Positions 2,573 to 12,099 of a stretch of 31,897 bases of DNA are shown piece by piece (position 1 is the stretch's first letter; every line of letters starts with the position of its first letter). Under the pieces are notes generated by a model. That model ran no database searches. It saw only the letters and a program-made list of their open reading frames with translations, and had not been told where the DNA came from. Both the position numbers and the translations under genes were made by a program. Location: positions 1-31,897 of the IMG/VR virus record IMGVR_UViG_2724679539_000006. One strand, given 5' to 3'. The stretch comes from a virus (Duplodnaviria; Heunggongvirae; Uroviricota; Caudoviricetes).

Positions 2573-2869
2573 TCAGTCATTACTGATAGCGCCATAACGT
2601 GATCGGTAATTACGCAGGCGCGGGTCGATATATTCAGGGAAGTGGGTATATGTGGCTTTGCGGAATGGTCGGATTGATGTCTGGTAAATTCGCTCGCGCT
2701 CTTCTTTCTCTGCAAGCCATATACAATGGCGAAATTCCTTTTCCTCTTTCGTTTCCTGCGGTAGAGACATTATCCGGTCGTAGTTTTTCCTGAATTTATC
2801 CAGCACCTCCGATACGGAATTGCCGGAACAGCGGCGCGGGTCATCCGCACCATACTGAGGCGCTGGCAT
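2573..2869 (-). CDS. hypothetical protein (99 aa), position of anti-RecBCD Abc genes in P22-like early operons
   Basis: internal ATG at 2869 with AGGA at 8 nt (track ORF 2573..2989 extends further 5'); directly downstream of erf-ssb; no sequence-level family assignment. Confidence 0.5.
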
Positions 2870-2891
2870 AATGGAATCCTTATTTGCTAAT

Positions 2892-3275
2892 TTAGAAGGG
2901 AATTGAATCGTCGTATTCAGGATGATTTTGATGATTGCTACTTTGTTGCTGTTGGCTGTTTCCTGAAGTTGCAAATCCAATCTTTGCATTCAGTAATTCA
3001 AGAGTGATTGATTGACCATTTTGCCCCTGATAAACATCAACCCTGATGTTTTCTCCGGTAATTTCCACAATGCCACCTTCAACCAGAACGCTACGATAGT
3101 AATCCGCTTGCGCTCCCGGCTTGGCAAATACAACGGCGCTGTAGTTTGTCCATTCTTTCTTTTTTGTCTGGCGATCGTAATACTGAACGCCAGCACGGAT
3201 GTTGAATCCGATATTTTCCCCGGCCTGAAACTCTCTTGCGGGTTTGTTTAGTCTTACAGTAATCGAATGTGCCAT
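2892..3275 (-). CDS. ssb: single-stranded DNA-binding protein (SSB family)
   Basis: OB-fold-like sequence ending in the SSB acidic tail motif DDSIPF; ATG at 3275 overlaps the erf stop (TAATG), implying translational coupling. Confidence 0.7.
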   Translation of the reverse strand: MAHSITVRLNKPAREFQAGENIGFNIRAGVQYYDRQTKKKEWTNYSAVVFAKPGAQADYYRSVLVEGGIVEITGENIRVDVYQGQNGQSITLELLNAKIGFATSGNSQQQQSSNHQNHPEYDDSIPF

Positions 3276-3880
3276 TAAGCAGCCGCTCCTTCTAATTCGT
3301 CTCGTCTGATGTTGTAAACGTCCTGCGCTTTGTGCTGCTCCGGTGTGCCTTCGAGCATCTTCCACGCTTTGGCGAACGCCTGTTTAAGCTCTTCTACGGT
3401 GTTTTTCTGCATTGCTGCGTCAGTGAATGCTTTTAGAACCTGTTCAGGTGTAGGTGATGGTTTTGATTGCTTTGCTGCTGCGTTCTGCTGATGTTTATGC
3501 TCGTCTGTATCTGCATCTTTCGCATCATCAATGCCGAACAAACCATTGAGGCAATACTTGCGTGCATAAGAGCTTGTAGCTCCTGTAACTTGTGCAGAAT
3601 CCATTCCTTTCTTGCTTTCTTCCTCTCGTGCAAGAGCGGTTGCCGTATGACTGTTTTCGCCATCGGTAATAGTTGCCGTGGCTTTCACGTAATACCGATC
3701 ACCAATCAACACAACTTCATCGCTGATTGATAAAAACAGGCCATTCAGTAACGGCTTAACGCCTTCAAGAATGTCTTCGCAGCTTCTGTATTTATATTTA
3801 CCGAATGAGTTGTACTGATTCTTTGGCGCGTTCAGATTCTCCTGAATAGCTGCCAGTCTTGCGTAAAATTCTTTGCTCAT
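3275..3880 (-). CDS. erf: Erf single-strand annealing recombinase
   Basis: MSKEFYARLAAIQENLNAPKNQYNSFGKYKYRSCEDILEG... matches P22 Erf as recalled; ATG start at 3880 (track start is an upstream TTG). Confidence 0.8.
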   Translation of the reverse strand: MSKEFYARLAAIQENLNAPKNQYNSFGKYKYRSCEDILEGVKPLLNGLFLSISDEVVLIGDRYYVKATATITDGENSHTATALAREEESKKGMDSAQVTGATSSYARKYCLNGLFGIDDAKDADTDEHKHQQNAAAKQSKPSPTPEQVLKAFTDAAMQKNTVEELKQAFAKAWKMLEGTPEQHKAQDVYNIRRDELEGAAA

Positions 3881-3969: not shown

Positions 3970-4140
3970 TCACGATCTCCCTTCTGGCGATACATTAACG
4001 CCTGCTGCGTGTACATGCGTCTCTGTAACTTGCTCTCCTTCACTGTGGTTGCAAGTGACATGAATATCTCCTTCGTTACCGATTAATTCTTTCATCTGAC
4101 GAATGAATTCTTCGTCTGACCAGTTATCTGTAAAACTCAT
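3970..4140 (-). CDS. hypothetical small protein (56 aa) at the kil position
   Basis: ATG at 4140 forms an ATGA overlap with the cIII stop; identity as Kil not verifiable from sequence. Confidence 0.4.
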   Translation of the reverse strand: MSFTDNWSDEEFIRQMKELIGNEGDIHVTCNHSEGEQVTETHVHAAGVNVSPEGRS

Positions 4141-4307
4141 GGGCGGCCTTGTTGTTTCAAAATATCCCAAAGCTTTTCGAGCAAACTTTTCATTCTTGGT
4201 TGTTTAAAGTCCGCTCCGGTTAAAATATTTTTTCGTGAATGCTGTACCGATAAAATCGGGTTGAAAGGGCGAACCGATGCCGCCCCTGCAATAGCGAACT
4301 GTTGCAT
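4137..4307 (-). CDS. cIII: CIII regulator (FtsH inhibitor)
   Basis: MQQFAIAGAAS...KSLLEKLWDILKQQGRP resembles lambda CIII (MQYAIAG...SLLERI...LIDILNQPG); AAGGAG RBS before ATG at 4307. Confidence 0.7.
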   Translation of the reverse strand: MQQFAIAGAASVRPFNPILSVQHSRKNILTGADFKQPRMKSLLEKLWDILKQQGRP

Positions 4308-4371
4308 AGGATGCTCCTTCTGTTTGATTGCATAACGAAAACGCCTCGAGTGAAGCGTTATTGGTATGCAT

Positions 4372-4397
4372 ATAAAAAAGCCCTCACATTGGAGGGC
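4372..4397 (-). terminator. putative intrinsic terminator upstream of cIII
   Basis: stem GCCCTC/GAGGGC with 6-nt loop, followed on the minus strand by a U6 run. Confidence 0.4.
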
Positions 4398-4492
4398 AAA
4401 GAAGATTTCCAATAATCAGAACAAGTCGGCTCCTGTTTAGTTACGAGCGACATTGCTCCGTGTATTCACTCGTTGGAATGAATACACAGTGC

Positions 4493-4693
4493 TTATTCGC
4501 GAGCTTTGAGCATTGCGTCTGCAAACTTATATGCAGCGCTTGCTGCATAATTAACAGCTCCATCAGAATCATTATCGATAATCGATGGATTGCTAATCAT
4601 TGCTTGCATAGCCTTTGCCGCGAAGTAATCACGTAATGTCGCATCACTTGCCATTTCTGGGCGTTTGATATCTGCTTCATAAAACTCGCACAT
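4493..4693 (-). CDS. hypothetical protein (66 aa)
   Basis: ATG at 4693 overlaps the upstream stop (ATGA); followed by a 9-bp inverted repeat at 4460-4487. Confidence 0.45.
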   Translation of the reverse strand: MCEFYEADIKRPEMASDATLRDYFAAKAMQAMISNPSIIDNDSDGAVNYAASAAYKFADAMLKARE

Positions 4694-4989
4694 CACTCAC
4701 CTACCAGAGCCTTGCTGATTGCTGCAAGACCTTTATTAACAGCTCCATACCATTCTGGATATGTTGTCGTTGTTCTATTTTTGGATTGCTTAAGTAATAA
4801 CTGAAGTGCTTCGAGAAGGTCAGGTGCTGCCGCTATTAGATTGGCATCTTCAATGCATTGAACTTCCTCACAGATTGCAATATACGAACGCCAGCCTGCG
4901 CCATTTTCAAGAGAGTCTGCCTGGATGATTTTAATATCATCGCCATCCATCATTATTTCCCACTTACCTTCAGTACCTTTAAATCCCAT
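4693..4989 (-). CDS. hypothetical protein (98 aa)
   Basis: ATG at 4989 with GAGG at 6 nt; coupled to the downstream gene. Confidence 0.5.
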   Translation of the reverse strand: MGFKGTEGKWEIMMDGDDIKIIQADSLENGAGWRSYIAICEEVQCIEDANLIAAAPDLLEALQLLLKQSKNRTTTTYPEWYGAVNKGLAAISKALVGE

Positions 4990-5007
4990 GTTAGCCTCTG
5001 TTGTTTA

Positions 5008-5040
5008 TGCCAAAAATAAAGGCCACCATCAGGCAGCCTT
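5008..5040 (-). terminator. putative intrinsic terminator after ral
   Basis: minus-strand hairpin AAGGCUGCC-UGAU-GGUGGCCUU (two G-U pairs) followed by UAUUUUUGG; close sequence relative of the element at 205-233. Confidence 0.4.
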
Positions 5041-5229
5041 GTTGTTCTGTTTACCAATTTCTCTGGCAATCATTGCCGTCGTTCGTATTGCCCATTTATC
5101 GACATATTTCCCATCTTCCATCACAGGAAACATTTCTTCAGGCTTAACCATGCATTCCGATTGCAGCTTGCATCCATTGCATCGTTTGAATTGTCCACAC
5201 CATTGATTCTTATCAATAGTCGTAGTCAT
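5029..5229 (-). CDS. ral: Ral restriction-alleviation protein
   Basis: 66 aa, MTTTIDKNQWCGQFKRCNGCKLQSECMVKPEEMFPVMEDGKYVDKW... matches lambda Ral as recalled. Confidence 0.7.
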   Translation of the reverse strand: MTTTIDKNQWCGQFKRCNGCKLQSECMVKPEEMFPVMEDGKYVDKWAIRTTAMIAREIGKQNNKAA

Positions 5230-5299
5230 ACGGATAGTCCTGGTATTGTTCCATCACATCCTGCGGATGCTCTTCGAACTCTTCAAATTCTTCTTCCAT
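5213..5299 (-). CDS. small acidic peptide (28 aa, MEEEFEEFEEHPQDVMEQYQDYPYDYDY), at the position of lambda orf28
   Basis: not in ORF track (too short); GAGGTG RBS 5 nt upstream of ATG at 5299; 3' end overlaps the ral start. Confidence 0.3.
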   Translation of the reverse strand: MEEEFEEFEEHPQDVMEQYQDYPYDYDY

Positions 5300-5307
5300 A
5301 TCTCACC

Positions 5308-5472
5308 TCAAATAAGTGGTTTGCCGCGAAAATAAATACGTTCCCACCAAGTTCCGTATCTATCTATCCAGTTACACCAATCATCGACACTCCATTTTGT
5401 TGTGTCGCATTTTGGCAATTGGCATGAATATCTACCTTCTTTGTAAAGTCGGCGTTTGATTTTCTTGAGCAT
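5308..5472 (-). CDS. small Cys/Trp-rich protein (54 aa, MLKKIKRRLYKEGRYSCQLPKCD...)
   Basis: not in ORF track; ATG at 5472 lies 8 nt downstream of the N stop and is preceded by GAGGTGG. Confidence 0.3.
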   Translation of the reverse strand: MLKKIKRRLYKEGRYSCQLPKCDTTKWSVDDWCNWIDRYGTWWERIYFRGKPLI

Positions 5473-5479
5473 GACCACC

Positions 5480-5812
5480 TCAATAGTAATAAGCTGGAAT
5501 TGATTTTCCGCGTTGCTTCTGGCGGCCTGAGCAGGTCACACCCATTTCACTGCGTGGCTTGCTGTACCATGTGCGCTGATTCTTGCGCTCAATACGTTGC
5601 AGGTTGCTTTCAATCTGTTCGTGGTATTCAGCCAGCACTGTAAGGTCTATTGGATTCAGTGCGCTTTCTACTCGTGATTTCGGTTTGCGATTCAGCGAGA
5701 GAATAGGGCGGTTAACTGGTTTTGCGCTTACCCCAACCAACAGGGGATTTGCTGCTTTCCATTGAGCCTGTTTCTCTGCGCGACGTTCGCGGCGGCGTGC
5801 TTGTGCATCCAT
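5480..5812 (-). CDS. N: N transcription antiterminator
   Basis: MDAQARRRERRAEKQAQWKAANPLLVGVSAKPVNRPILSLNRKPKSRVESALNPIDLTVLAEY... matches lambda N, including the Arg-rich motif; AGGAG RBS before ATG at 5812. Confidence 0.85.
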   Translation of the reverse strand: MDAQARRRERRAEKQAQWKAANPLLVGVSAKPVNRPILSLNRKPKSRVESALNPIDLTVLAEYHEQIESNLQRIERKNQRTWYSKPRSEMGVTCSGRQKQRGKSIPAYYY

Positions 5813-5922
5813 CTGGATTCTCCTGTCAGTTAGCTTTGAGTAACGCGCCGTGATGCTTATCTCCACGGTTGCTGTCTTGCAGCTGCATTTCGCGCTACTC
5901 AAAGCCTTCTGCTTTGAATGCT

Positions 5923-5952
5923 GCCCTTCTTCAGGGCTTAATTTTTAAGAGC
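5923..5952 (-). promoter_or_regulatory. nutL (boxA GCTCTTAA + boxB GCCCTGAAGAAGGGC)
   Basis: minus-strand sequence GGCTCTTAAAAATTAAGCCCTGAAGAAGGGCAGC matches lambda nutL with one boxA mismatch. Confidence 0.75.
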
Positions 5953-5985
5953 CTCACCTTCATGGTGGTTAGTGCGTCCTGCTGA

Positions 5986-6021
5986 TGGCTAAATAGTACG
6001 ATTTGTACTTTATCGAGTCAA
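5986..6021 (-). promoter_or_regulatory. PL-like promoter with overlapping operator dyad
   Basis: minus-strand -35 TTGACT (6016-6021), 17-bp spacer, -10 TACTAT (5993-5998), leader starting ATCAGCAGGACG as in lambda PL; dyad AGTAC-N5-GTACT (5995-6009) overlaps the -10. Confidence 0.5.
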
Positions 6022-6082
6022 TACAAAATGTTCTAAACATAATTAGTTTTTTATAACGCTTTGTATTTAATGGGTTTATATT

Positions 6083-6116
6083 TTGGAAAAAGAAAACCCG
6101 ACGCTAAGGTCGGGTT
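6083..6116 (-). terminator. intrinsic terminator downstream of the repressor gene
   Basis: 8-bp stem AACCCGAC/GTCGGGTT with 6-nt loop; minus-strand RNA is followed by UUUUCUUUUUCC; weaker U-rich tract on the plus side as well. Confidence 0.5.
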
Positions 6117-6146
6117 ATTGTTGTGTGTTTTAGAGTTGTGAGGCTG

Positions 6147-6806
6147 TTAGCTAAATGTCTCTTCAGGCCACTGGCTGGCGATAACTTTCCCTACTACGGA
6201 ACAGCTATCATTGCATGGAATCATTGGATATTGCGGGTTTAGTGGCTGTAGGAACACCTGACCGCTATCCCTGATCAGTTTCTTGAAGGTAAACTCGTCA
6301 CCACCAAGTCTGGCTATGCAGAAATCACCTGGCTCAACAGCCTGCTCAGGGTCAACGAGAATTAACATCCCGTCAGGAAAGCTTGGCTTGGATCCTGTTG
6401 GCGCGGTCATGGAATTACCTTCAACTTCAAGCCAGAACGCACAATCACTGGCTTTTTTGGTTGTGCTGACCCATCTCTCCGCATCACCTTTGGTAAAGGT
6501 TCTAAGCTCAGGCGAGAACATCCCGGCCTGAACATGAGAAAAAACAGGGTACTCATATTGTTTTTTAACGGGGGCAGATGAGTATTCGCCAACAGGTGAA
6601 AATGTACCGTCGTGGTTGAATGAGACGTTATCAATACCAAGGTATTTAAACACCACACCAATCTCGTCAAGAGATGGATGACGAGATCCGCGCAACCAGT
6701 GACCAATTCCACCCTGCGTCATACCAAGCTCTTCAGCTAACTTCTCTTGAGTTATGCCGAGCTCTTTCATTCTGGATCTAGCCAGTTCATACCATTTCAT
6801 TTTCAT
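6147..6806 (-). CDS. cI: CI-type prophage repressor (XRE HTH + S24 LexA-like peptidase domain)
   Basis: N-terminal HTH ([22 protein letters not shown]); C-terminal GNSM...FKKL Ser/Lys dyad region resembling P22 C2; start could be ATG 6806 or 6800. Confidence 0.85.
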
Positions 6807-6862
6807 ACCCTTATTATTACGCTCTGTACTAAAACCATCCATGCACAAGATGTATTTTTTGT

Positions 6863-6891
6863 TTGCATTCTAAAAGTACATATCGTATTAT
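6863..6891 (+). promoter_or_regulatory. PR-like promoter with overlapping operator dyad
   Basis: -35 TTGCAT (6863-6868), 17-bp spacer, -10 TATTAT (6886-6891); dyad AGTAC-N5-GTATT (6875-6889) overlaps spacer and -10. Confidence 0.45.
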
Positions 6892-6917
6892 TATTTCATG
6901 GTTACTATGGAGGGCAT

Positions 6918-7133
6918 ATGAGCAACCTACGAAAATATCGAGAGTCACTGAATATCTCTCAAACAACACTTGCTAAGGCAGTTGGATGCACACAGGGAGC
7001 TATCGGACATTGGGAATCTGGTCGTCGCTTCCCAGACCTTAAAACATGCCGTGCTCTTGTTGAGTGCCTAAACAAGTTAGGCGCAAAAGTCAGTCTTGAT
7101 GACGTGTTCCCGCCGGAACACAAAGCCGCTTAA
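6918..7133 (+). CDS. cro: Cro-like HTH repressor (71 aa)
   Basis: MSNLRKYRESLNISQTTLAKAVGCTQGAIGHWESG... XRE-type HTH; GGAGGG RBS; divergent from the repressor gene. Confidence 0.65.
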   Translation: MSNLRKYRESLNISQTTLAKAVGCTQGAIGHWESGRRFPDLKTCRALVECLNKLGAKVSLDDVFPPEHKAA

Positions 7134-7141
7134 GACATTCC

Positions 7142-7173
7142 CGCTCTTACACATCCCAGCCCTGAAAAAGGGC
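7142..7173 (+). promoter_or_regulatory. nutR (boxA CGCTCTTA + boxB GCCCTGAAAAAGGGC)
   Basis: matches lambda nutR; followed by the lambda-like tR1/cII leader. Confidence 0.8.
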
Positions 7174-7234
7174 ATCAAATTAAACCACACCTATGGTGTA
7201 TGCATTTATTTGCATACATTCAATCAATTGTTAT

Positions 7235-7275
7235 CTAAGGAAATACTTACATATGGTTCGTGCAAACAAACGCAA
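7235..7275 (-). promoter_or_regulatory. PRE (CII-activated promoter) with TTGC-N6-TTGC CII site
   Basis: minus-strand TTGCGTTTGTTTGC spanning the cII start codon region, as in lambda. Confidence 0.55.
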
Positions 7276-7546
7276 CGAGGCTCTAAGAATCGAGAGTGCG
7301 TTGCTTAACAAAATCGCAATGCTTGGAACTGAGAAGACAGCGGAAGCTGTGGGAGTCGATAAGTCGCAGATCAGCAGGTGGAAGAGGGACTGGATTCCAA
7401 AGTTCTCAATGCTGCTTGCTGTTCTTGAATGGGGTGTCGTCGACGACGACATGGCTCGATTGGCACGACAAGTTGCTTCGATTCTCACCAATAAAAAACG
7501 CCCGGCGGCAACCGAGCGTTCTGAACAAATCCAGATGGAATTCTGA
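7253..7546 (+). CDS. cII: CII transcriptional activator
   Basis: 97 aa, [51 protein letters not shown]... essentially identical to lambda CII as recalled. Confidence 0.9.
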
Positions 7547-7578
7547 GGTCATTACTGGATCAATCCACAGGAGTAATT

Positions 7579-7725
7579 ATGACAAAACAACTCAGTCCTT
7601 ACCAGGACAAAATTCACAAACACATACTACGTGATCGCTTCCTGTCCAGCTTCAAGCAGCCTGGTCGATTCCGGGCTGAGTTGGAAAAAGTGAAGCTGAT
7701 GCAGAAGGAGAAAGGTCATGAGTAA
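7579..7725 (+). CDS. small hypothetical protein (48 aa, [21 protein letters not shown]...)
   Basis: not in ORF track; AGGAG 5 nt upstream of ATG at 7579; 3' end overlaps the O-like start by 8 nt. Confidence 0.35.
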
Positions 7726-8578
7726 TCTTGCAACCATAACACATTTAAGGCCTTCACAACGGCCTGTGGAGCGTCGTGTGGCAGAAGTTGAAGATGGTTA
7801 TACCCGTCTTGCAAATGCCCTGTATGAAGAGCTTATCGGCGCAGATTTAACGAAAAATCAGAGCAAGGTTGCCCACGCCATATGCCGTAAAACATACGGC
7901 TACGGTAAAAAGATGGATCGCATCTCTGATAGTCAGTTAGCTCAAATTACCAGGCTGCCAAGACAGAAGGTAAACAAGGCCAAGAATGAGCTTATCGCGA
8001 TGAAGGTTATCCTTCGCGAAGGCCAGCAAATCGGGCCTAACAAGAACATCGAAGAATGGCAAATCGAAGGGTGTCACTACTCTGGTGATAATGTCACTGC
8101 ATTGGTGACAAAAAGTGTCACCAAAACGGTGACAGCGCTGTCACCAAAACAGGGACACACAAAAGAAACTATTACAAAAGAAAAAAGAAATAATAAAAAC
8201 ACTATGTCCGAAAGTGTTCGGACGGAGTGTGAAAAATCACCTGACCGTCACGAAGAAATCGACAAGGCATTCGAGGAAATATTCTGGTGTGCAGGCATGC
8301 GGAAAGCCGGGAAGAAAAACGCAGCTTCGGCATTCAGAACACAGTTCAGGGAATGGCGTAAAACTACCAGGGGTACGGCAAGCGAGTTTGCCACGATGCT
8401 GGCAGAAGACATCGCATGCAGGAATGGTAAGCAGTTCGGATTCGACAGGTTGTTACCATCGAGCTACCTGAACGGTCAGCGCTGGAACGACGAGAAGCCA
8501 GAAACTATTCAACCACAATCCAAACCATCATCCGCAATCACCGTATCGAAAACTGGCTACGTGTTTTTCGACAGGTGA
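7718..8578 (+). CDS. O: replication initiator, lambda-O-like N-terminal domain with a different C-terminal domain
   Basis: N-terminus [14 protein letters not shown]...DLTKNQSKV...[25 protein letters not shown] resembles lambda O; AAGGAG RBS; iterons lie inside the gene. Confidence 0.75.
8071..8210 (+). repeat. candidate replication origin: palindromic iterons (GGTGACA-N4/5-TGTCACC) followed by an AT-rich tract
   Basis: at least three dyad iterons at 8084-8145 spaced by AAAAC, then about 50 bp A/T-rich (8160-8210); same layout as lambda ori inside O. Confidence 0.5.
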
Positions 8579-8685
8579 ACCATGAAATCAAAAATCAAAT
8601 CGCTACTGGTCGCTGGTTATAACCACGGCTGGTTAAGTATTTCGTTTGTCGATTTCTGGTTTAAAAATCTCAATCTGAGGGAATC

Positions 8686-9180
8686 ATGATGAGCCTTGAA
8701 GTTGGAGAATATATACCTGGTTATGAGGGTAAATACTCTGTAACCAAAGACGGTCGTGTTTATTCACATTTAAGAGGCAGGTTTTTGAATCCATCTCCGG
8801 ATAACAAGGGTTATCTAAGAGTCACTTTGTGTTCCGATGGGATTCAGAAGACGTTAAAAGTTCATCGTCTTGTAGCTCAATTATTTATCCCAAATCCGTA
8901 TTGCAAGCCAGAAGTAAATCATATCAACGGCGACAAATCGGATAACGCCATTTGGAACTTGGAATGGTGTACCTGCTCAGAGAATTTAAAACATGCTTTT
9001 AGCATCGGACTGAAAAGCGCAAAGGGAGTTTTTAATGGTAGGGCAAAACTATCTGAAACTGATGTGATTGATATCAGGAATTCTGTTGGTATGAAACTAA
9101 GCGAACTATCCACTAAATACGGAGTGAGTGAAATGCAAATTTCCACAATCCGCAGAGGAAACGCATGGAGGCACCTTTGA
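8686..9180 (+). CDS. HNH homing-endonuclease-like protein (NUMOD4-like N-terminus + HNH + C-terminal HTH)
   Basis: GYEGKYSVTKDGRVYS motif, then HRLVAQLF...NHINGDKSDNAIWNLEWCTCSEN (HNH); GAGGGAA RBS. Confidence 0.75.
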   Translation: MMSLEVGEYIPGYEGKYSVTKDGRVYSHLRGRFLNPSPDNKGYLRVTLCSDGIQKTLKVHRLVAQLFIPNPYCKPEVNHINGDKSDNAIWNLEWCTCSENLKHAFSIGLKSAKGVFNGRAKLSETDVIDIRNSVGMKLSELSTKYGVSEMQISTIRRGNAWRHL

Positions 9181-11057
9181 GTCCATCAGAACTCAGTGAC
9201 CTGCTTTGGGCGCAGGTTGACAGGGTGGCTCCGCACCTGTTGCCAAACGGCAAGAAAGAGGGGCATGAGTGGGTTGCCGGTAACGTCAACGGTGACAAGG
9301 GAAACAGCCTTAAGGTCAACCTTAGCGGCAAGAAAAAATGGGCTGATTTCGCTGAGGGAGACGGCGGTGACATGCTTGATTTGTGGATGGCATGTCGTGG
9401 AATTAACCTGCATCAGGCTATGCAGGAAGCGAAAGCCTTTCTCGGAATCAAGGATGACGATCACCATTTCGATGCCAAACGTGAGAAGAAATTCTCCAGA
9501 CCTGACCGCAAGAAAATCGCCCGCTACGTTACCAGAACAGAATCCCATCTTGAGTACCTGCAATCGCGTGGCATATCGCCAGAAATCGTAAAACGCTACG
9601 AGGTTGTCAGCGGCAAGGTGTGGAATGGAGAGCGAGAACTGGATGCTCTGGTGATTCCGTACAAACGCGATGGTGAGTTGTTGCAGGTAAAGCGAATCAG
9701 CACTGAGCGCCCGGACGGGAAGAAAGTCATTATGGCAGAAGGTGATTGCGAACCTTGTCTGTTCGGATGGCAGGCTCTGGACGCTGGCGTGAGGGCGGTT
9801 GTACTTTGCGAAGGCGAAATTGATTGTATGAGCTATGCGCAATACGGCATCTCGGCGTTATCCGTGCCGTTTGGTGGCGGGAAAGGCGCTAAGCAACAGT
9901 GGATTGAGTTTGAGTATCACAACCTCGACAGGTTTGAGGAGATATTCATCTCGATGGACGTTGATGATGTTGGTCGTGAAGCCGCAAGGGAAATCGCAAG
10001 CCGACTCGGTGAACATCGTTGCCGTCTTGTTACTCTGCCGTACAAAGACATCAACGAATGCCTGATGAACGGTGTTACCGAGGATGAAATCTGGCAGTAC
10101 ATCGGCACGGCATCCTACTTCGATCCTGAAGAACTCTACAGTGCGCGAGAGTTTTACCAGGACACTATCAACGCTTTCTACGGCAAGCAGCAGTATCTGT
10201 TTAATCCACCGTGGGAATCTCTGGCAGATAAATTCCAGTTCCGTGAGGCAGAGTTGACGCTGGTCAATGGTGTGAACGGTCACGGAAAAACGGAGGTTGT
10301 CGGGCATATGGCACTTGAGGCAATGCGTCAGGGTGTGAAGACGTGCATCGCGTCACTTGAGCTGAAGCCAGGCATTCTCCTTAAGCGACTTACCCGTCAG
10401 GCAACGTGCTGCAAGATGCCGCCAGTGCTGGAAATTGACTCTGCATTTAAATTTTATGACGAAAGACTTTGGGTGTTTGGCCTGACCGGAACGGCGAAAG
10501 CCGACAGGCTGATCGAAATATTCGACTACGCTCGCCGCCGATACGGTATCCAGTTATTCATCATCGACAGCCTGATGAAATGTGGCATAGGCGACGATGA
10601 CTATAACGGGCAGAAGGCGTTTGTTGACTCGATTTGCGACTTCAAAAACAAAACAAACTCCCACGTCATTCTCGTTACTCACTCGCGAAAAGGAGACAGC
10701 GAAGAAAAACCAACCGGGAAAATGGACGTAAAAGGCTCTGGAGCGATAACAGACCTGACAGACAACCTTTTCATCATCTGGCGTAACAAGGCTCGCGAGA
10801 GAGCGTTACAGAGAGTTCAGAGTGGTGAAAAGATGTCAGAGAAGGACGAACAGCTACTGGCATCTCCGGCATCTGTTTTGATGCTTGAAAAACAACGTAA
10901 CGGCGAAGGTTGGGAGGGTGGTGTCCCGTTGTTCCTTGACGAGCAATCGCACCAGTTCCTGCAACTTGAATCAGGATCGCCATATAGCTACATCGCCAAT
11001 ATGCCGAAATCGGAATATGACGAGGCGTGGCGACAGGAAAACGTGACGGAGTATTAA
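9165..11057 (+). CDS. bifunctional DNA primase-helicase (TOPRIM + RecA/DnaB-like helicase)
   Basis: TOPRIM acidic motifs (CEGEID, MDVDDVG); Walker A NGVNGHGKTE; Walker B LFIIDSLMK; 630 aa. Confidence 0.8.
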   Translation: MEAPLSPSELSDLLWAQVDRVAPHLLPNGKKEGHEWVAGNVNGDKGNSLKVNLSGKKKWADFAEGDGGDMLDLWMACRGINLHQAMQEAKAFLGIKDDDHHFDAKREKKFSRPDRKKIARYVTRTESHLEYLQSRGISPEIVKRYEVVSGKVWNGERELDALVIPYKRDGELLQVKRISTERPDGKKVIMAEGDCEPCLFGWQALDAGVRAVVLCEGEIDCMSYAQYGISALSVPFGGGKGAKQQWIEFEYHNLDRFEEIFISMDVDDVGREAAREIASRLGEHRCRLVTLPYKDINECLMNGVTEDEIWQYIGTASYFDPEELYSAREFYQDTINAFYGKQQYLFNPPWESLADKFQFREAELTLVNGVNGHGKTEVVGHMALEAMRQGVKTCIASLELKPGILLKRLTRQATCCKMPPVLEIDSAFKFYDERLWVFGLTGTAKADRLIEIFDYARRRYGIQLFIIDSLMKCGIGDDDYNGQKAFVDSICDFKNKTNSHVILVTHSRKGDSEEKPTGKMDVKGSGAITDLTDNLFIIWRNKARERALQRVQSGEKMSEKDEQLLASPASVLMLEKQRNGEGWEGGVPLFLDEQSHQFLQLESGSPYSYIANMPKSEYDEAWRQENVTEY

Positions 11058-11086
11058 ATGACCATCTACATCACTGAGCTAATAAC

Positions 11087-11118
11087 AGGCCTGCTGGTAA
11101 TCGCAGGCCTTTTTATTT
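11087..11118 (+). terminator. intrinsic terminator (tR2 position, upstream of ninB)
   Basis: stem AGGCCTGC/GCAGGCCT with 8-nt loop, followed by TTTTTATTT. Confidence 0.65.
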
Positions 11119-11134
11119 GGGGGAGAGGGAAGTC

Positions 11135-11575
11135 ATGAAAAAACTAACATTTGAAATTCGATCTCCGGCACATCAGCAAAACGCTATTCACGCAGTACAG
11201 CAAATCCTTCCAGACCCAACCAAACCAATCGTAGTAACCATTCAGGAACGCAACCGCAGCTTAGACCAGAATCGGAAGCTTTGGGCTTGCCTTGGTGACG
11301 TTTCGCGTCAGGTTGAATGGCATGGTCGCTGGCTGGATGCAGAAAGCTGGAAGTGTGTGTTTACCGCAGCATTAAAGCAGCAGGACGTTGTTCCTAACCT
11401 TGCCGGGAATGGCTTTGTGGTAATAGGCCTGTCAACCAGCAGGATGCGTGTAAGCGAATTTGCGGAGCTATTAGAGCTTATACAGGCATTCGGTACAGAG
11501 CGTGGCGTTAAGTGGTCAGACGAAGCGAGACTGGCTCTGGAGTGGAAAGCGAGATGGGGAGATCGGGCTGCATGA
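11135..11575 (+). CDS. ninB: NinB recombination protein
   Basis: 146 aa, MKKLTFEIRSPAHQQNAIHAVQQILPDPTKPIVVTIQERNRSLDQNRKLWACLGD... matches lambda NinB. Confidence 0.9.
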   Translation: MKKLTFEIRSPAHQQNAIHAVQQILPDPTKPIVVTIQERNRSLDQNRKLWACLGDVSRQVEWHGRWLDAESWKCVFTAALKQQDVVPNLAGNGFVVIGLSTSRMRVSEFAELLELIQAFGTERGVKWSDEARLALEWKARWGDRAA

Positions 11576-12099
11576 CTATCAAATCAAATACGCCAGCACA
11601 CGACAAGGACTGCTGGCAAACGCCGCTCTGGCTTTTTGATGCACTGGATATTGAGTTTGGATTCTGGCTGGATTCGGCAGCGAGCGACAAAAATGCTCTG
11701 TGTGCTCACTGGCTAACTGAGGCCGACGACGCGCTCAATTCTGAGTGGGTAAGCCACGGTGCAATCTGGAATAACCCACCGTACAGCAATATCAGGCCGT
11801 GGGTGGAAAAAGCCGCTGAGCAGTGCATACAACAGCGACAGACGGTAGTGATGCTTGTGCCAGAGGATATGTCAGTCGGATGGTTCAGCAAGGCTCTGGA
11901 GAGTGTCGACGAAGTTCGCATTATCACTGATGGACGGATTAATTTTATCGAACCATCGACGGGGCTGGAGAAGAAGGGAAACAGCAAAGGTTCCATGCTG
12001 CTGATTTGGCGACCGTTCATCAGTCCTCGACGGATGTTTACTACCGTATCCAAAGCGGCATTGATGGCGATCGGGCAGGGCGTCAGGAGGGCGGCATGA
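11572..12099 (+). CDS. dam: phage DNA N6-adenine methyltransferase (Dam-type)
   Basis: NPPY catalytic motif ([10 protein letters not shown]); occupies the ninC/ninD position; ATGA overlap with ninB. Confidence 0.8.

Follow-up and report, generated by a model that had tools for sequence, protein, structure and literature searches.

The described immunity regions closest to the one considered here are those of VT2-Sakai (Sp5; NC_000902), of the Morioka V526 Stx1 and Stx2-II phages (AP005153, AP005154), of Nil2 (AJ413274) and of 2851. A 2023 paper (PMC10742460) credits Fattah et al. (2000) with having reported that the C-terminus of the VT2-Sakai repressor is lambda-like, and attributes to the same authors a 'cross immunity' between lambda and VT2-Sakai; in its Table S1, the six VT2-Sakai operators appear as the oligonucleotides that were used (PMC10742460). 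Here, we analysed a window of 31,897 nucleotides, which is the whole stretch of DNA available to us (positions 1 to 31,897 of IMG/VR record IMGVR_UViG_2724679539_000006). We consider it highly probable that this DNA, from a P22-like/HK620-like Escherichia coli podophage, contains a lambdoid immunity region of the VT2-Sakai type that is complete, probably functional and flanked by lambda-like sequence. The features of the region, in window coordinates, are as follows:

5480 to 5812, minus strand: N antiterminator gene, 110 aa (Pfam N36, E = 3e-25).
5900 to 5987, minus strand: lambda-like PL leader, 97.7% identical to lambda, with the PL +1 at about 5986.
5923 to 5937, minus strand: nutL boxB (reverse complement GCCCTGAAGAAGGGC), within the lambda-like leader, from the junction alignment.
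5945 to 5953, minus strand: nutL boxA (reverse complement GGCTCTTAA), also within the lambda-like leader, from the junction alignment.
5993 to 6021, minus strand: PL promoter, TTGACT-17-TACTAT, from a promoter scan; placed with respect to the conserved +1 block as PL is in lambda.
5994 to 6010: OL1, TAGTACGATTTGTACTT, 16/17 to the published VT2-Sakai OL1; lies across the -10 and the spacer of PL.
6019 to 6035: OL2, CAATACAAAATGTTCTA, 15/17 to the published VT2-Sakai OL2; a conserved block; overlaps the PL -35.
6052 to 6068: OL3, TATAACGCTTTGTATTT, 16/17 to the published VT2-Sakai OL3; a conserved block.
6085 to 6124, minus strand: intrinsic terminator for leftward cI transcription, a stem-loop at 6095-6116 followed by a T-run, from a terminator scan.
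6147 to 6557, minus strand: 3′ part of cI, residues 84-219, corresponding to lambda cI mature residues 101-236 (Pfam Peptidase_S24, E = 9e-29).
6558 to 6806, minus strand: 5′ part of cI, the HTH_3 N-terminal domain, residues 1-83 (Pfam HTH_3, E = 8e-11), of the VT2-Sakai type.
6813 to 6841, minus strand: inferred PRM, TGGATG-17-AATAAT, read from the sequence; AP005153 has a -35 annotated at the same place.
6815 to 6831: OR3, TATTACGCTCTGTACTA, 16/17 to the published VT2-Sakai OR3; an operator in AP005153; overlaps the PRM -10.
6841 to 6857: OR2, ATGCACAAGATGTATTT, 15/17 to the published VT2-Sakai OR2; an operator in AP005153.
6862 to 6891, plus strand: PR promoter, TTTGCA-18-TATTAT or TTGCAT-17-TATTAT, from the promoter scan; the rightward promoter of AP005153 is in the same place.
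6874 to 6890: OR1, AAGTACATATCGTATTA, 15/17 to the published VT2-Sakai OR1; lies across the -10 and the spacer of PR.
6918 to 7133, plus strand: cro-like gene, 71 aa, an all-helical HTH_3 protein (Pfam HTH_3, E = 1e-12).
7142 to 7173, plus strand: nutR, with boxA (CGCTCTTA) at 7142-7149 and boxB (GCCCTGAAAAAGGGC) at 7159-7173; 97.3% to lambda and from the junction alignment.
7253 to 7546, plus strand: lambda-like cII gene, 97 aa (Pfam Phage_CII, E = 2e-48; blastn).
5′ end of cII: PRE, placed by homology with lambda.

As expected of lambdoid cI/Cro regions, the immunity region is bordered by N and nutL on the left and by nutR and cII on the right. A blastn comparison of the whole window with lambda (NC_001416) aligned the nutL and PL leader segment (5900-5987) with lambda 35496-35583 at 97.7% identity, the N region (5556-5838) with lambda 35104-35386 at 98.6% and the nutR and cII segment (7140-7586) with lambda 38247-38693 at 97.3%; the 3′ end of N (5480-5555) is non-lambda. 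In the junction alignments, the lambda homology on the left stops at 5987, 1-4 nt from the PL +1 (reverse complement ATCAGCAGGACGCACT), and on the right it restarts at about 7140, 7-9 nt past the cro stop codon (TAA, 7131-7133) and just 5′ of boxA. A preliminary description had placed an immunity module between the PL leader of lambda and nutR, with N, nutL, nutR and cII all lambda-like; the blastn and junction alignments, together with the Pfam matches for N and cII, uphold this arrangement, and both outer junctions had been placed accurately to within a few bases. The block at the PL +1 (CATCAGCAGGACGC) is unchanged in the window, lambda, P22 and VT2-Sakai, that is, in four phages representing three immunity types, and in the GenBank record of P22 a boundary is annotated at this same place. 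An Rfam scan of positions 4500-9000 gave no match at E <= 0.1.

Everything between the outer junctions had been described as unrelated to lambda cI/cro. This was right for OL/PL (5988-6088) and for the segment comprising the N-terminal domain of cI, OR and cro (6558-7139), in which blastn found no lambda homology, but not for the C-terminal part of cI, where 6149-6557 aligns with lambda 37229-37637 at 93.6% nucleotide identity over 409 bp, nor for the terminator, where 6089-6124 aligns at 88.9% with lambda 35799-35834, just downstream of rexB. In the terminator stem, a compensatory change places an A-T pair in the window where lambda has G-C. From left to right, OL/PL is foreign, the terminator is lambda-like, the C-terminal domain and hinge of cI are those of lambda, and the N-terminal domain, OR and cro are again foreign. 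An extra junction falls within cI, at codon 84 of the window repressor, the equivalent of lambda mature Tyr101. The swap is a mosaic and not a single unbroken foreign block. The junctions at the PL +1 block and at nutR boxA are short sequences common to many lambdoid phages, and the junction internal to cI adjoins a long stretch of homology in the C-terminal domain; all three junction sequences could have been used as recombination substrates, or may have been kept by selection. With its junctions at the PL +1 block, the cI hinge and nutR boxA, the region is a textbook case of modular exchange at conserved linkers.

The repressor gene, cI (219 aa; 6147-6806, minus strand), and cro (plus strand) are divergent, with 111 bp between them. 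The start codon of cI is ambiguous; the one at 6806 is used here, with alternatives at 6800 and at 6842, the last being that taken in public annotations. Of the 136 residues in the C-terminal part, 133 are identical to lambda cI mature residues 101-236, and of the 27 nucleotide differences from lambda in this part 24 are silent and three change a residue. A resemblance to lambda arising by chance, or one at the level of the protein family, is ruled out by this degree of DNA identity over 409 bp, with differences that are mostly silent. The part spans both the hinge, where the Ala-Gly cleavage site lies, and the S24 domain, which has the equivalents of Ser149 and Lys192; the motifs AGMF, GNSMT and FKKL are conserved between the window repressor and lambda cI. 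A search of the PDB returned the lambda repressor 3bdn as the best solved structure (E = 2e-96), and 8gmu was also matched. The C-terminal domain had previously been likened to that of P22 C2, which was wrong in degree: P22 C2 is 37% identical to the window repressor overall, lambda cI is 98% identical over the C-terminal 136 residues, and the best PDB match is lambda. The C-terminal domain is lambda cI's own. Because this part of the protein is 98% identical to lambda cI, it should mediate dimerisation, pairwise cooperativity and, through its Ala-Gly site and Ser/Lys dyad, self-cleavage stimulated by RecA; it probably also supports OL-OR looping.

The N-terminal domain has a different affiliation. 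It had been regarded as an HTH domain that could not be assigned to a named immunity type, yet 80 of its 83 residues are identical to those of the VT2-Sakai and Stx1-phage repressors, the HTH segment, recognition helix included, is identical to the VT2-Sakai type, and the domain belongs to the immunity type shared by VT2-Sakai, Nil2, 2851 and the two Morioka phages (Stx1 and Stx2-II). Domains with at least 95% identity to it occur in 63 phage records, VT2-type Stx phages among them. Its similarity to the lambda N-terminal domain is weak (E = 7e-4) and that to P22 C2 is not significant (E = 0.35). When the N-terminal domain alone was used to search the PDB the matches were also weak, the best (E = 1e-4) being to a designed or unnamed protein; on this basis, the DNA-binding domain is not defined by any solved structure. 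These comparisons show the repressor to be a natural two-domain mosaic, in which an HTH_3 head is joined at hinge residue 84 to a lambda cI tail; the head would set the operator specificity, with the core A-x-x-A-C-N5-G-T-x-x-T.

Six related and partly palindromic 17-mers form two clusters, one overlapping PL and the other PR and the inferred PRM, and constitute a tripartite OL and a tripartite OR. OL1 shows dyad symmetry at 6/7 positions, is a conserved block in the alignment with the OL of the Stx1 phage, and has a 90% inverted match in OR1. OR2 borders the PRM -35 and does not overlap the PR -35, being 5 bp upstream of it. The centre-to-centre distances are 25 and 33 bp in OL, and 33 bp (OR1-OR2) and 26 bp (OR2-OR3) in OR, against 24/20 and 24/23 bp in lambda. 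In the OL alignment, the operators are conserved and the spacers between them diverge. A pattern derived from the operators matches all six sites and two other places in the 31.9 kb; since the pattern was derived from the same six sites, it is the clustering and the two other matches that are informative. The promoter scan gave three promoter-like matches, compared with a mean of 2.9 in shuffled sequence; this number is not above chance, and the scan is not taken as independent evidence, the support for PL coming from its position and from homology. PRM, too weak, was below detection in the scan and was inferred by hand; its predicted +1 is the A of the ATG at 6806, which would give a leaderless cI mRNA, as in lambda. 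Finally, the Cro protein is 70/71 identical to VT2-Sakai Cro, and a comparison with lambda Cro, which belongs to an alpha+beta fold family, gave no BLASTP alignment at E <= 100. Cro is also 35% identical to the N-terminal domain of the repressor, including the sequence TQGxIGHW in the HTH.

The immunity type is thereby one already characterised, and the swap, although real, is not novel. The DNA of cI, OR and cro is 92.8-93% identical to that of VT2-Sakai over 987 bp, a stretch bounded precisely by the stop codons of cI and cro, and the six published 17-bp VT2-Sakai operators are all present, with 15-16 of 17 positions matching in each, at positions annotated as putative operators in GenBank AP005153. 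The alignment of OR shows no conservation with the imm lambda operators (TATCACCGCCAGTGGTA-like 17-mers); by its operators, its N-terminal domain and its Cro the region is not imm lambda, and only the C-terminal domain is that of lambda. Nor is the repressor of the P22 C2 type, for which close identity in the C-terminal domain would be expected, the two proteins being 37% identical overall. The module is 99.2-99.6% identical in the isolated phages Dewey, Louie, vB_EcoP-720R6 and vB_EcoP-683R2, and, of 5426 complete E. coli genomes, 205 contain the arrangement. It is a known and common swap, and its immunity type has been deposited and discussed before, for Shiga-toxin phages; what should be recorded in the annotation is that the C-terminal domain is lambda cI's and the immunity type VT2-Sakai, and the significance beyond annotation is small.

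From the sequence, the window phage is predicted to be homoimmune with VT2-Sakai, despite the three residues that differ in the N-terminal domain. These residues, the one or two of 17 positions that differ in each operator, the 73-78% overall identity of the OL region and an OR1-OR2 distance of 33 bp, compared with 32 bp in the Stx1 phage, could be taken to indicate that changes in the N-terminal domain and in the operators have created a new specificity, derived from the VT2-Sakai type and heteroimmune to it. We think this unlikely. The substitutions (D/S, E/D and V/I) all fall after the HTH recognition helix, which is itself identical; the differences from the VT2-Sakai oligonucleotides all lie outside the ACN5GT core, mostly in the central N5 or at the outermost position, and a half-site base is changed at a single operator, OL3; and the one difference in Cro is outside the HTH. 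Homoimmunity with VT2-Sakai, as predicted from its immunity type, would extend to a major class of Stx prophages, even though the window phage lacks stx and is a P22-like podophage. A resident phage of this kind could then block superinfection by Stx phages of the VT2-Sakai type, or a resident Stx phage of that type could exclude it.

A second alternative, still less likely, is that the region is a remnant, decaying within a cryptic prophage, in which the switch is dead and the loss of rexAB is part of the decay. Both rexA and rexB are absent between OL and cI, the adjoining terminator alone remaining; some genomic copies of the region adjoin IS elements (for example, ISEc52 is beside N in Ecol_AZ159), and the deposited VT2-Sakai cI has a stop codon. 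Against this, the reading frames of cI, cro, N and cII are all intact, the substitutions in the C-terminal domain are almost all silent, and the six operators, both lytic promoters and the terminator have been kept. Moreover, the rex-less module is at least 99% identical in the four phages named above, which were isolated as viruses, and in relatives the rex slot holds other genes (Orf11 in phi458; ORF b63 in the Stx1 phage), which argues for a variable cargo slot and not for decay. The least probable reading, that one unbroken, novel and unnamed immunity block, wholly unlike lambda cI/cro and with a P22-C2-like C-terminal domain, has replaced that of lambda, has in its favour the correct outer junctions, the non-lambda N-terminal domain, operators and cro, and the detection of P22 C2 as an S24-family homologue (37%), but it is refuted by the blastn comparison with lambda, the repressor alignment, the comparison with VT2-Sakai and the best PDB match, the C-terminal 136 residues being 98% lambda cI, the terminator lambda-like, and the N-terminal domain, OR and cro 93-98% identical to VT2-Sakai and to its relatives, a type with GenBank-annotated operators.

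An intact VT2-Sakai-type switch would work much as in lambda. Judging from the positions of the operators and the geometry known for lambda, repressor bound at OL1 and OL2 would block PL, and repressor bound at OR1 would block PR. The predicted geometry of PRM is lambda-like, with OR2 about 43 bp (to its centre) and OR3 about 17 bp upstream of the leaderless ATG; repressor at OR2 would activate the weak PRM, yielding the leaderless cI mRNA, and occupancy of OR3, over the PRM -10, would allow negative autoregulation. Cro, which carries the recognition-helix motif of the repressor (TQGxIGHW), may bind the same operators and shut PRM. Activated by cII, PRE would transcribe back through cro into cI, establishing lysogeny, and the terminator at 6095-6116 would halt cI transcripts ahead of OL/PL. 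With rexA and rexB missing, looping between OL and OR would have to span just about 0.88 kb, compared with about 2.4 kb in lambda. Operator occupancy, activation of PRM, the leaderless start and cooperativity are all proposed here by analogy with lambda.

The hinge and C-terminal domain, 98% identical to lambda cI's but carrying a different head, raise the possibility of interference between heteroimmune prophages. Tentatively, and as a proposal that we would not favour at present, prophages sharing the lambda cI C-terminal domain could interfere with one another in polylysogens or upon superinfection, and this could underlie the 'cross immunity' mentioned above. Dimers formed between the two repressors would carry two different heads, larger mixed assemblies (tetramers or octamers) could link operators of the two phages, and lambda cI and the window repressor would have an equal threshold for RecA cleavage. 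If so, the compact, rex-less module would lend itself naturally to testing crosstalk between the repressors of heteroimmune prophages.

Several known systems share part of this organisation. P22 C2 belongs to the same HTH and S24 family and P22 shares the conserved PL +1 block, the resemblance not extending at a significant level to the N-terminal domain. The C1 repressor of the Salmonella phage g341c, which has relatives in SPN9CC and ST64T, is homologous to the window repressor over its full length (222 aa, 69% identity), with about 55% identity in the N-terminal domain and clearly stronger conservation in the C-terminal domain; it is a divergent orthologue, probably of different operator specificity. 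Its existence implies that the pairing of these two kinds of domain, VT2-type at the N-terminus and lambda-like at the C-terminus, is old. The VT2-type repressor might be a recent lambda-derived hybrid, but with a full-length homologue of this kind lambda could equally be the recombinant. Phages of the VT2-Sakai group have the same lambda-like C-terminal domain and six operators in the same order and at nearly the same spacing, the OR1-OR2 difference in the Stx1 phage resulting from a 1-nt indel. They differ from the window phage in virion type, in having an HK97-like N and an HK022-like cII where the window has lambda-like N, nutL, nutR and cII, and in having about 1.5 kb with ORFs between OL and cI, where the window has no gene. 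With lambda, the window shares the overall architecture as well as the cI hinge and C-terminal domain, the terminator 3′ of rexB, the PL leader, nutL, nutR, cII and N; unlike lambda are the operators, the N-terminal domain, with its weak, family-level similarity, and the all-helical HTH_3 Cro. Lambda imm434 and lambda imm21 are laboratory hybrids in which a foreign immunity region is set in a lambda-like early region, and the region described here can be seen as a natural counterpart of lambda imm434, a 'lambda imm-VT2-Sakai'. In its repressor, as in engineered domain-swap repressors, the DNA-binding and the oligomerisation/cleavage domains behave as separable modules; a lambda-186 hybrid repressor provides a precedent (PMC8053113). 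Compared with such hybrids, and with engineered domain-swap repressors, the combination found in the window is natural and widespread, and its two parts are joined in the hinge, at lambda Tyr101.

Judged by its sequence, the region between N and cII is an immunity region of the type found in the Shiga-toxin phage VT2-Sakai (NC_000902). The DNA on either side is lambda-like, and the repressor has the hinge and C-terminal domain of lambda cI. The closest relatives of the window are P22-like/HK620-like E. coli podophages, with APC_JM3.2, Dewey, IME10 and Sf101 as best matches (97% over 47-62% of the first 25 kb). The early region is lambdoid, and the ORF list and Pfam domains identify its genes as follows:

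Genes around the switch
5480-5812, minus strand: N (N36 domain)
6147-6806, minus strand: repressor, 219 aa (HTH_3 plus Peptidase_S24)
6918-7133, plus strand: Cro-like protein, 71 aa (HTH_3)
7253-7546, plus strand: cII

Comparison of window 4001-9500 with lambda (NC_001416) by blastn, together with alignments at the junctions, revealed five lambda-like segments:

Lambda-like segments in window 4001-9500
5556-5838: N, 98.6%
5900-5987 (lambda 35496-35583): nutL and PL leader, 97.7%
6089-6124 (lambda 35799-35834): end of rexB and downstream hairpin, 88.9%
6149-6557 (lambda 37229-37637): within the repressor gene, 93.6%
7140-7586 (lambda 38247-38693): nutR and cII, 97.3%

On the left, lambda identity ends at the PL transcript start (reverse complement ATCAGCAGGACGCACT); on the right it restarts between the cro stop (TAA, 7131-7133) and the adjoining nutR boxA (CGCTCTTA, 7142-7149). 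Both outer junctions had been placed correctly, within a few bases, in the preliminary description; its claim that the whole interior is foreign to lambda fails for the two inner segments. Between them, the window, lambda, P22 and VT2-Sakai cover three types of immunity and three of N. Alignment of their PL regions shows that the block CATCAGCAGGACGC, located at the PL start, does not vary among the four; upstream of it the sequence tracks the immunity type, and downstream the N type. The P22 GenBank record annotates a boundary at the same point ([quoted passage not shown]). Thus, the left boundary appears to be recurrent among lambdoid phages rather than specific to the window; this applies to the PL start, the boundary at boxA being seen in the window-lambda comparison.

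N has a mosaic junction of its own (window 5480-5560): the 98.6% identity to lambda ends at about 5556, after which the final ~25 codons specify a C-terminus unlike that of lambda (…PRSEMGVTCSGRQKQRGKSIPAYYY), giving 110 aa vs 107 aa in lambda. The nutL boxA (5945-5953) reads GGCTCTTAA on the transcribed strand vs CGCTCTTAA in lambda; the two differ at one base, the first of boxA (5953). In the neighbouring part of the window (4997-5324 and 5308-5478), both ral (5029-5229, Pfam Ral) and the surrounding DNA are lambda-like and lambda sieB is absent; ral and N are separated by a DUF5484 ORF of 56 aa (minus strand, 5308-5478). To the right, the Phage_rep_O replication gene (7718-8578), otherwise non-lambda, contains a short island (8145-8190) 93% identical to lambda 39107-39152, which comprises ori iteron 4 and adjacent DNA. 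A free-standing homing-endonuclease-like gene (NUMOD4 plus HNH_3, 164 aa, 8686-9180) directly follows Phage_rep_O, whereas in phage Dewey an HNH endonuclease precedes the replication initiation gene.

The translated repressor was aligned with lambda cI and with the CI of the Stx1-converting phage of O157:H7 Morioka V526 (AP005153), and the three are collinear from the junction to the C-terminus. Residues 84-219 correspond to lambda mature residues 101-236 and are identical at 133 of 136 positions, the exceptions being S139C, E217D and G236S; in the alignment the Ala111-Gly112 cleavage site and the motifs containing Ser149 and Lys192 are kept. Only three of the 27 nucleotide differences from lambda in this part (411 nt) alter a residue, which indicates purifying selection. 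Among solved structures the best hit was 3bdn, the intact lambda repressor (E = 2e-96); fragments of the lambda C-terminal domain came next. The earlier label "P22-C2-like" for this domain therefore holds at most at family level, identity to P22 C2 being 37% overall. The junction is within the hinge and precedes the cleavage site by ten residues, so that the exchanged unit comprises the hinge cleavage site together with the domain responsible for oligomerisation and self-cleavage.

A megablast search of phage records with 5953-7141 gave full-length matches to Dewey, Louie, vB_EcoP-720R6 and vB_EcoP-683R2 (99.2-99.6%) and to phi458 (97.8%). Matches at 93%, spanning exactly 6147-7133 (cI stop to cro stop), were found in the Stx1-converting and Stx2-II phages of O157:H7 Morioka V526, Nil2, 2851 and many O157 Stx phages. 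Compared directly, the window and VT2-Sakai are 92.8% identical over 987 bp, with Cro identical at 70/71 aa. The repressor N-terminal domain matches the Stx1-phage sequence at 80/83 aa, and that of VT2-Sakai equals the Stx1-phage domain bar a stop codon in the deposited cI. This in-frame stop (within 10900-11595 of the VT2-Sakai record L005) falls in the recognition-helix codon (…LGMT*GGIGHW…), which specifies Gln in the window and in the Stx1 Morioka phage, and RefSeq divides the gene into two CDSs. Searched alone by tblastn, the N-terminal domain was found at >=95% in 63 phage records; the next nearest were those of Salmonella phages g341c, SPN9CC and ST64T (~54%), and lambda, 434, 21, HK97, HK022 and P22 were absent among the matches listed (best 40 of 156 records). 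The domain, which the preliminary description could not assign to a named immunity type, is thus assigned to the VT2-Sakai type by these identities and by the six operators.

Three putative operators are annotated at OR and three at OL in AP005153, and the six VT2-Sakai 17-mers are given as oligonucleotides in PMC10742460. All six were found in the window as predicted sites:

Predicted operators, with match to VT2-Sakai
5994-6010: OL1, 16/17
6019-6035: OL2, 15/17
6052-6068: OL3, 16/17
6815-6831: OR3, 16/17
6841-6857: OR2, 15/17
6874-6890: OR1, 15/17

The ACN5GT core is free of differences in all six; most of the differences affect the central N5 or the outermost position, and one (OL3) lies within a half-site. 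OL as a whole is 73-78% identical to VT2-Sakai/Stx1-type OL, and alignment with the Stx1 phage shows the three operators and the PL -35 and -10 conserved and the spacers diverged. The operator pattern WDHACNNNNNGTWYT has just two matches outside OL/OR, both on the minus strand (1877-1891, and 7041-7055 inside cro), which are probably due to chance. An extra operator downstream of OR is reported for HK022 in PMC8053113.

The promoter scan placed a predicted PL (TTGACT-17-TACTAT) at 6021 to 5993, minus strand, where OL1 covers the -10 and spacer and OL2 the -35, and a predicted PR (TTGCAT-17-TATTAT) at 6863-6891, where OR1 covers the -10 and spacer. A candidate weak PRM (TGGATG-17-AATAAT, 6841 to 6813, minus strand) was read by hand; its -35 adjoins OR2, centred ~43 bp upstream of the start (42 bp in lambda), and its -10 overlaps OR3. 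From these parts and positions we infer the workings of the switch by analogy with lambda. Transcription from PRM would begin at the A of the ATG at 6806, yielding a leaderless cI mRNA as in lambda, and the geometry suggests that repressor at OR2 activates PRM, with autorepression from OR3. Public annotations place the repressor start at 6842, inside OR2; we prefer 6806 or 6800, since the conserved MKM(K/N)WY run, common with the Salmonella phage repressor g341c C1, begins there and such a start also fits the PRM geometry. The g341c alignment reaches a few residues upstream of this run. Cro is 35% identical to the N-terminal domain of the repressor, and TQGxIGHW occurs in the HTH of each, as expected if they read the same operators. 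The lambda-type C-terminal part would let the repressor dimerise, bind cooperatively, undergo RecA-stimulated cleavage and loop OL to OR as lambda cI does; OL and OR are ~0.88 kb apart, and looping at ~0.7 kb is described as demonstrated for HK022 CI in PMC8053113. Neither the spacing of the OL operators (25/33 bp) nor that of the OR operators (33/26 bp) is that of lambda, and OR2, instead of overlapping the PR -35, is 5 bp upstream of it.

The repressor and g341c C1 are 69% identical over their full length (~55% in the N-terminal domain, the C-terminal domain being more conserved), so the pairing of a VT2-type N-terminal lineage with a lambda-like C-terminal domain is old. The C-terminal-domain DNA identities are near-equal (window-lambda 93.4%, window-VT2-Sakai 91.5%, lambda-VT2-Sakai 92.9%), and the lambda and VT2-type lineages are both candidates for the recombinant. 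High homology of VT2-Sakai CI to lambda CI in the C-terminal dimerisation region, and cross immunity with lambda, are mentioned in PMC10742460 (citing Fattah et al. 2000, Genes Genet Syst 75:223). Eight clades of Stx-phage CI proteins are distinguished in PMC8951638, where Clade I is 61% identical overall to lambda CI, a figure that, compared as a number alone, fits the kind of repressor seen here. Of 5426 complete E. coli genomes, 205 contain the exact arrangement (window 5900-7200) with coverage of >=80%, and 49 records contain it at >=99%. In E. coli Ecol_AZ159 (L007, 1-852), which has an identical module, an ISEc52 transposase lies directly left of N, so this prophage copy is disrupted. 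The precisely bounded immunity swap stands as a real mosaic by sequence comparison, and it is an ordinary one: the immunity type and the lambda-like C-terminus are both already described, and the arrangement is common.

A variable cargo slot separates the cI stop from the terminator/OL (window 6085-6148; 2675-3721 and 1034-2159 in compared records L004 and L002). On the minus strand, a terminator scan picked out a stem of 8 bp (6095-6116) with a T-run after it; the stem has a compensatory A-T in place of a lambda G-C. Whereas lambda has rexA-rexB here, both genes are missing from the window, in which the slot is empty, with ~24 nt between the terminator homology and the cI stop; phi458 carries a 348-aa hypothetical ORF in the slot, and the Stx1 phage and VT2-Sakai carry ~1.5 kb with other ORFs, those of the Stx1-converting phage being b63 and B55-B57.
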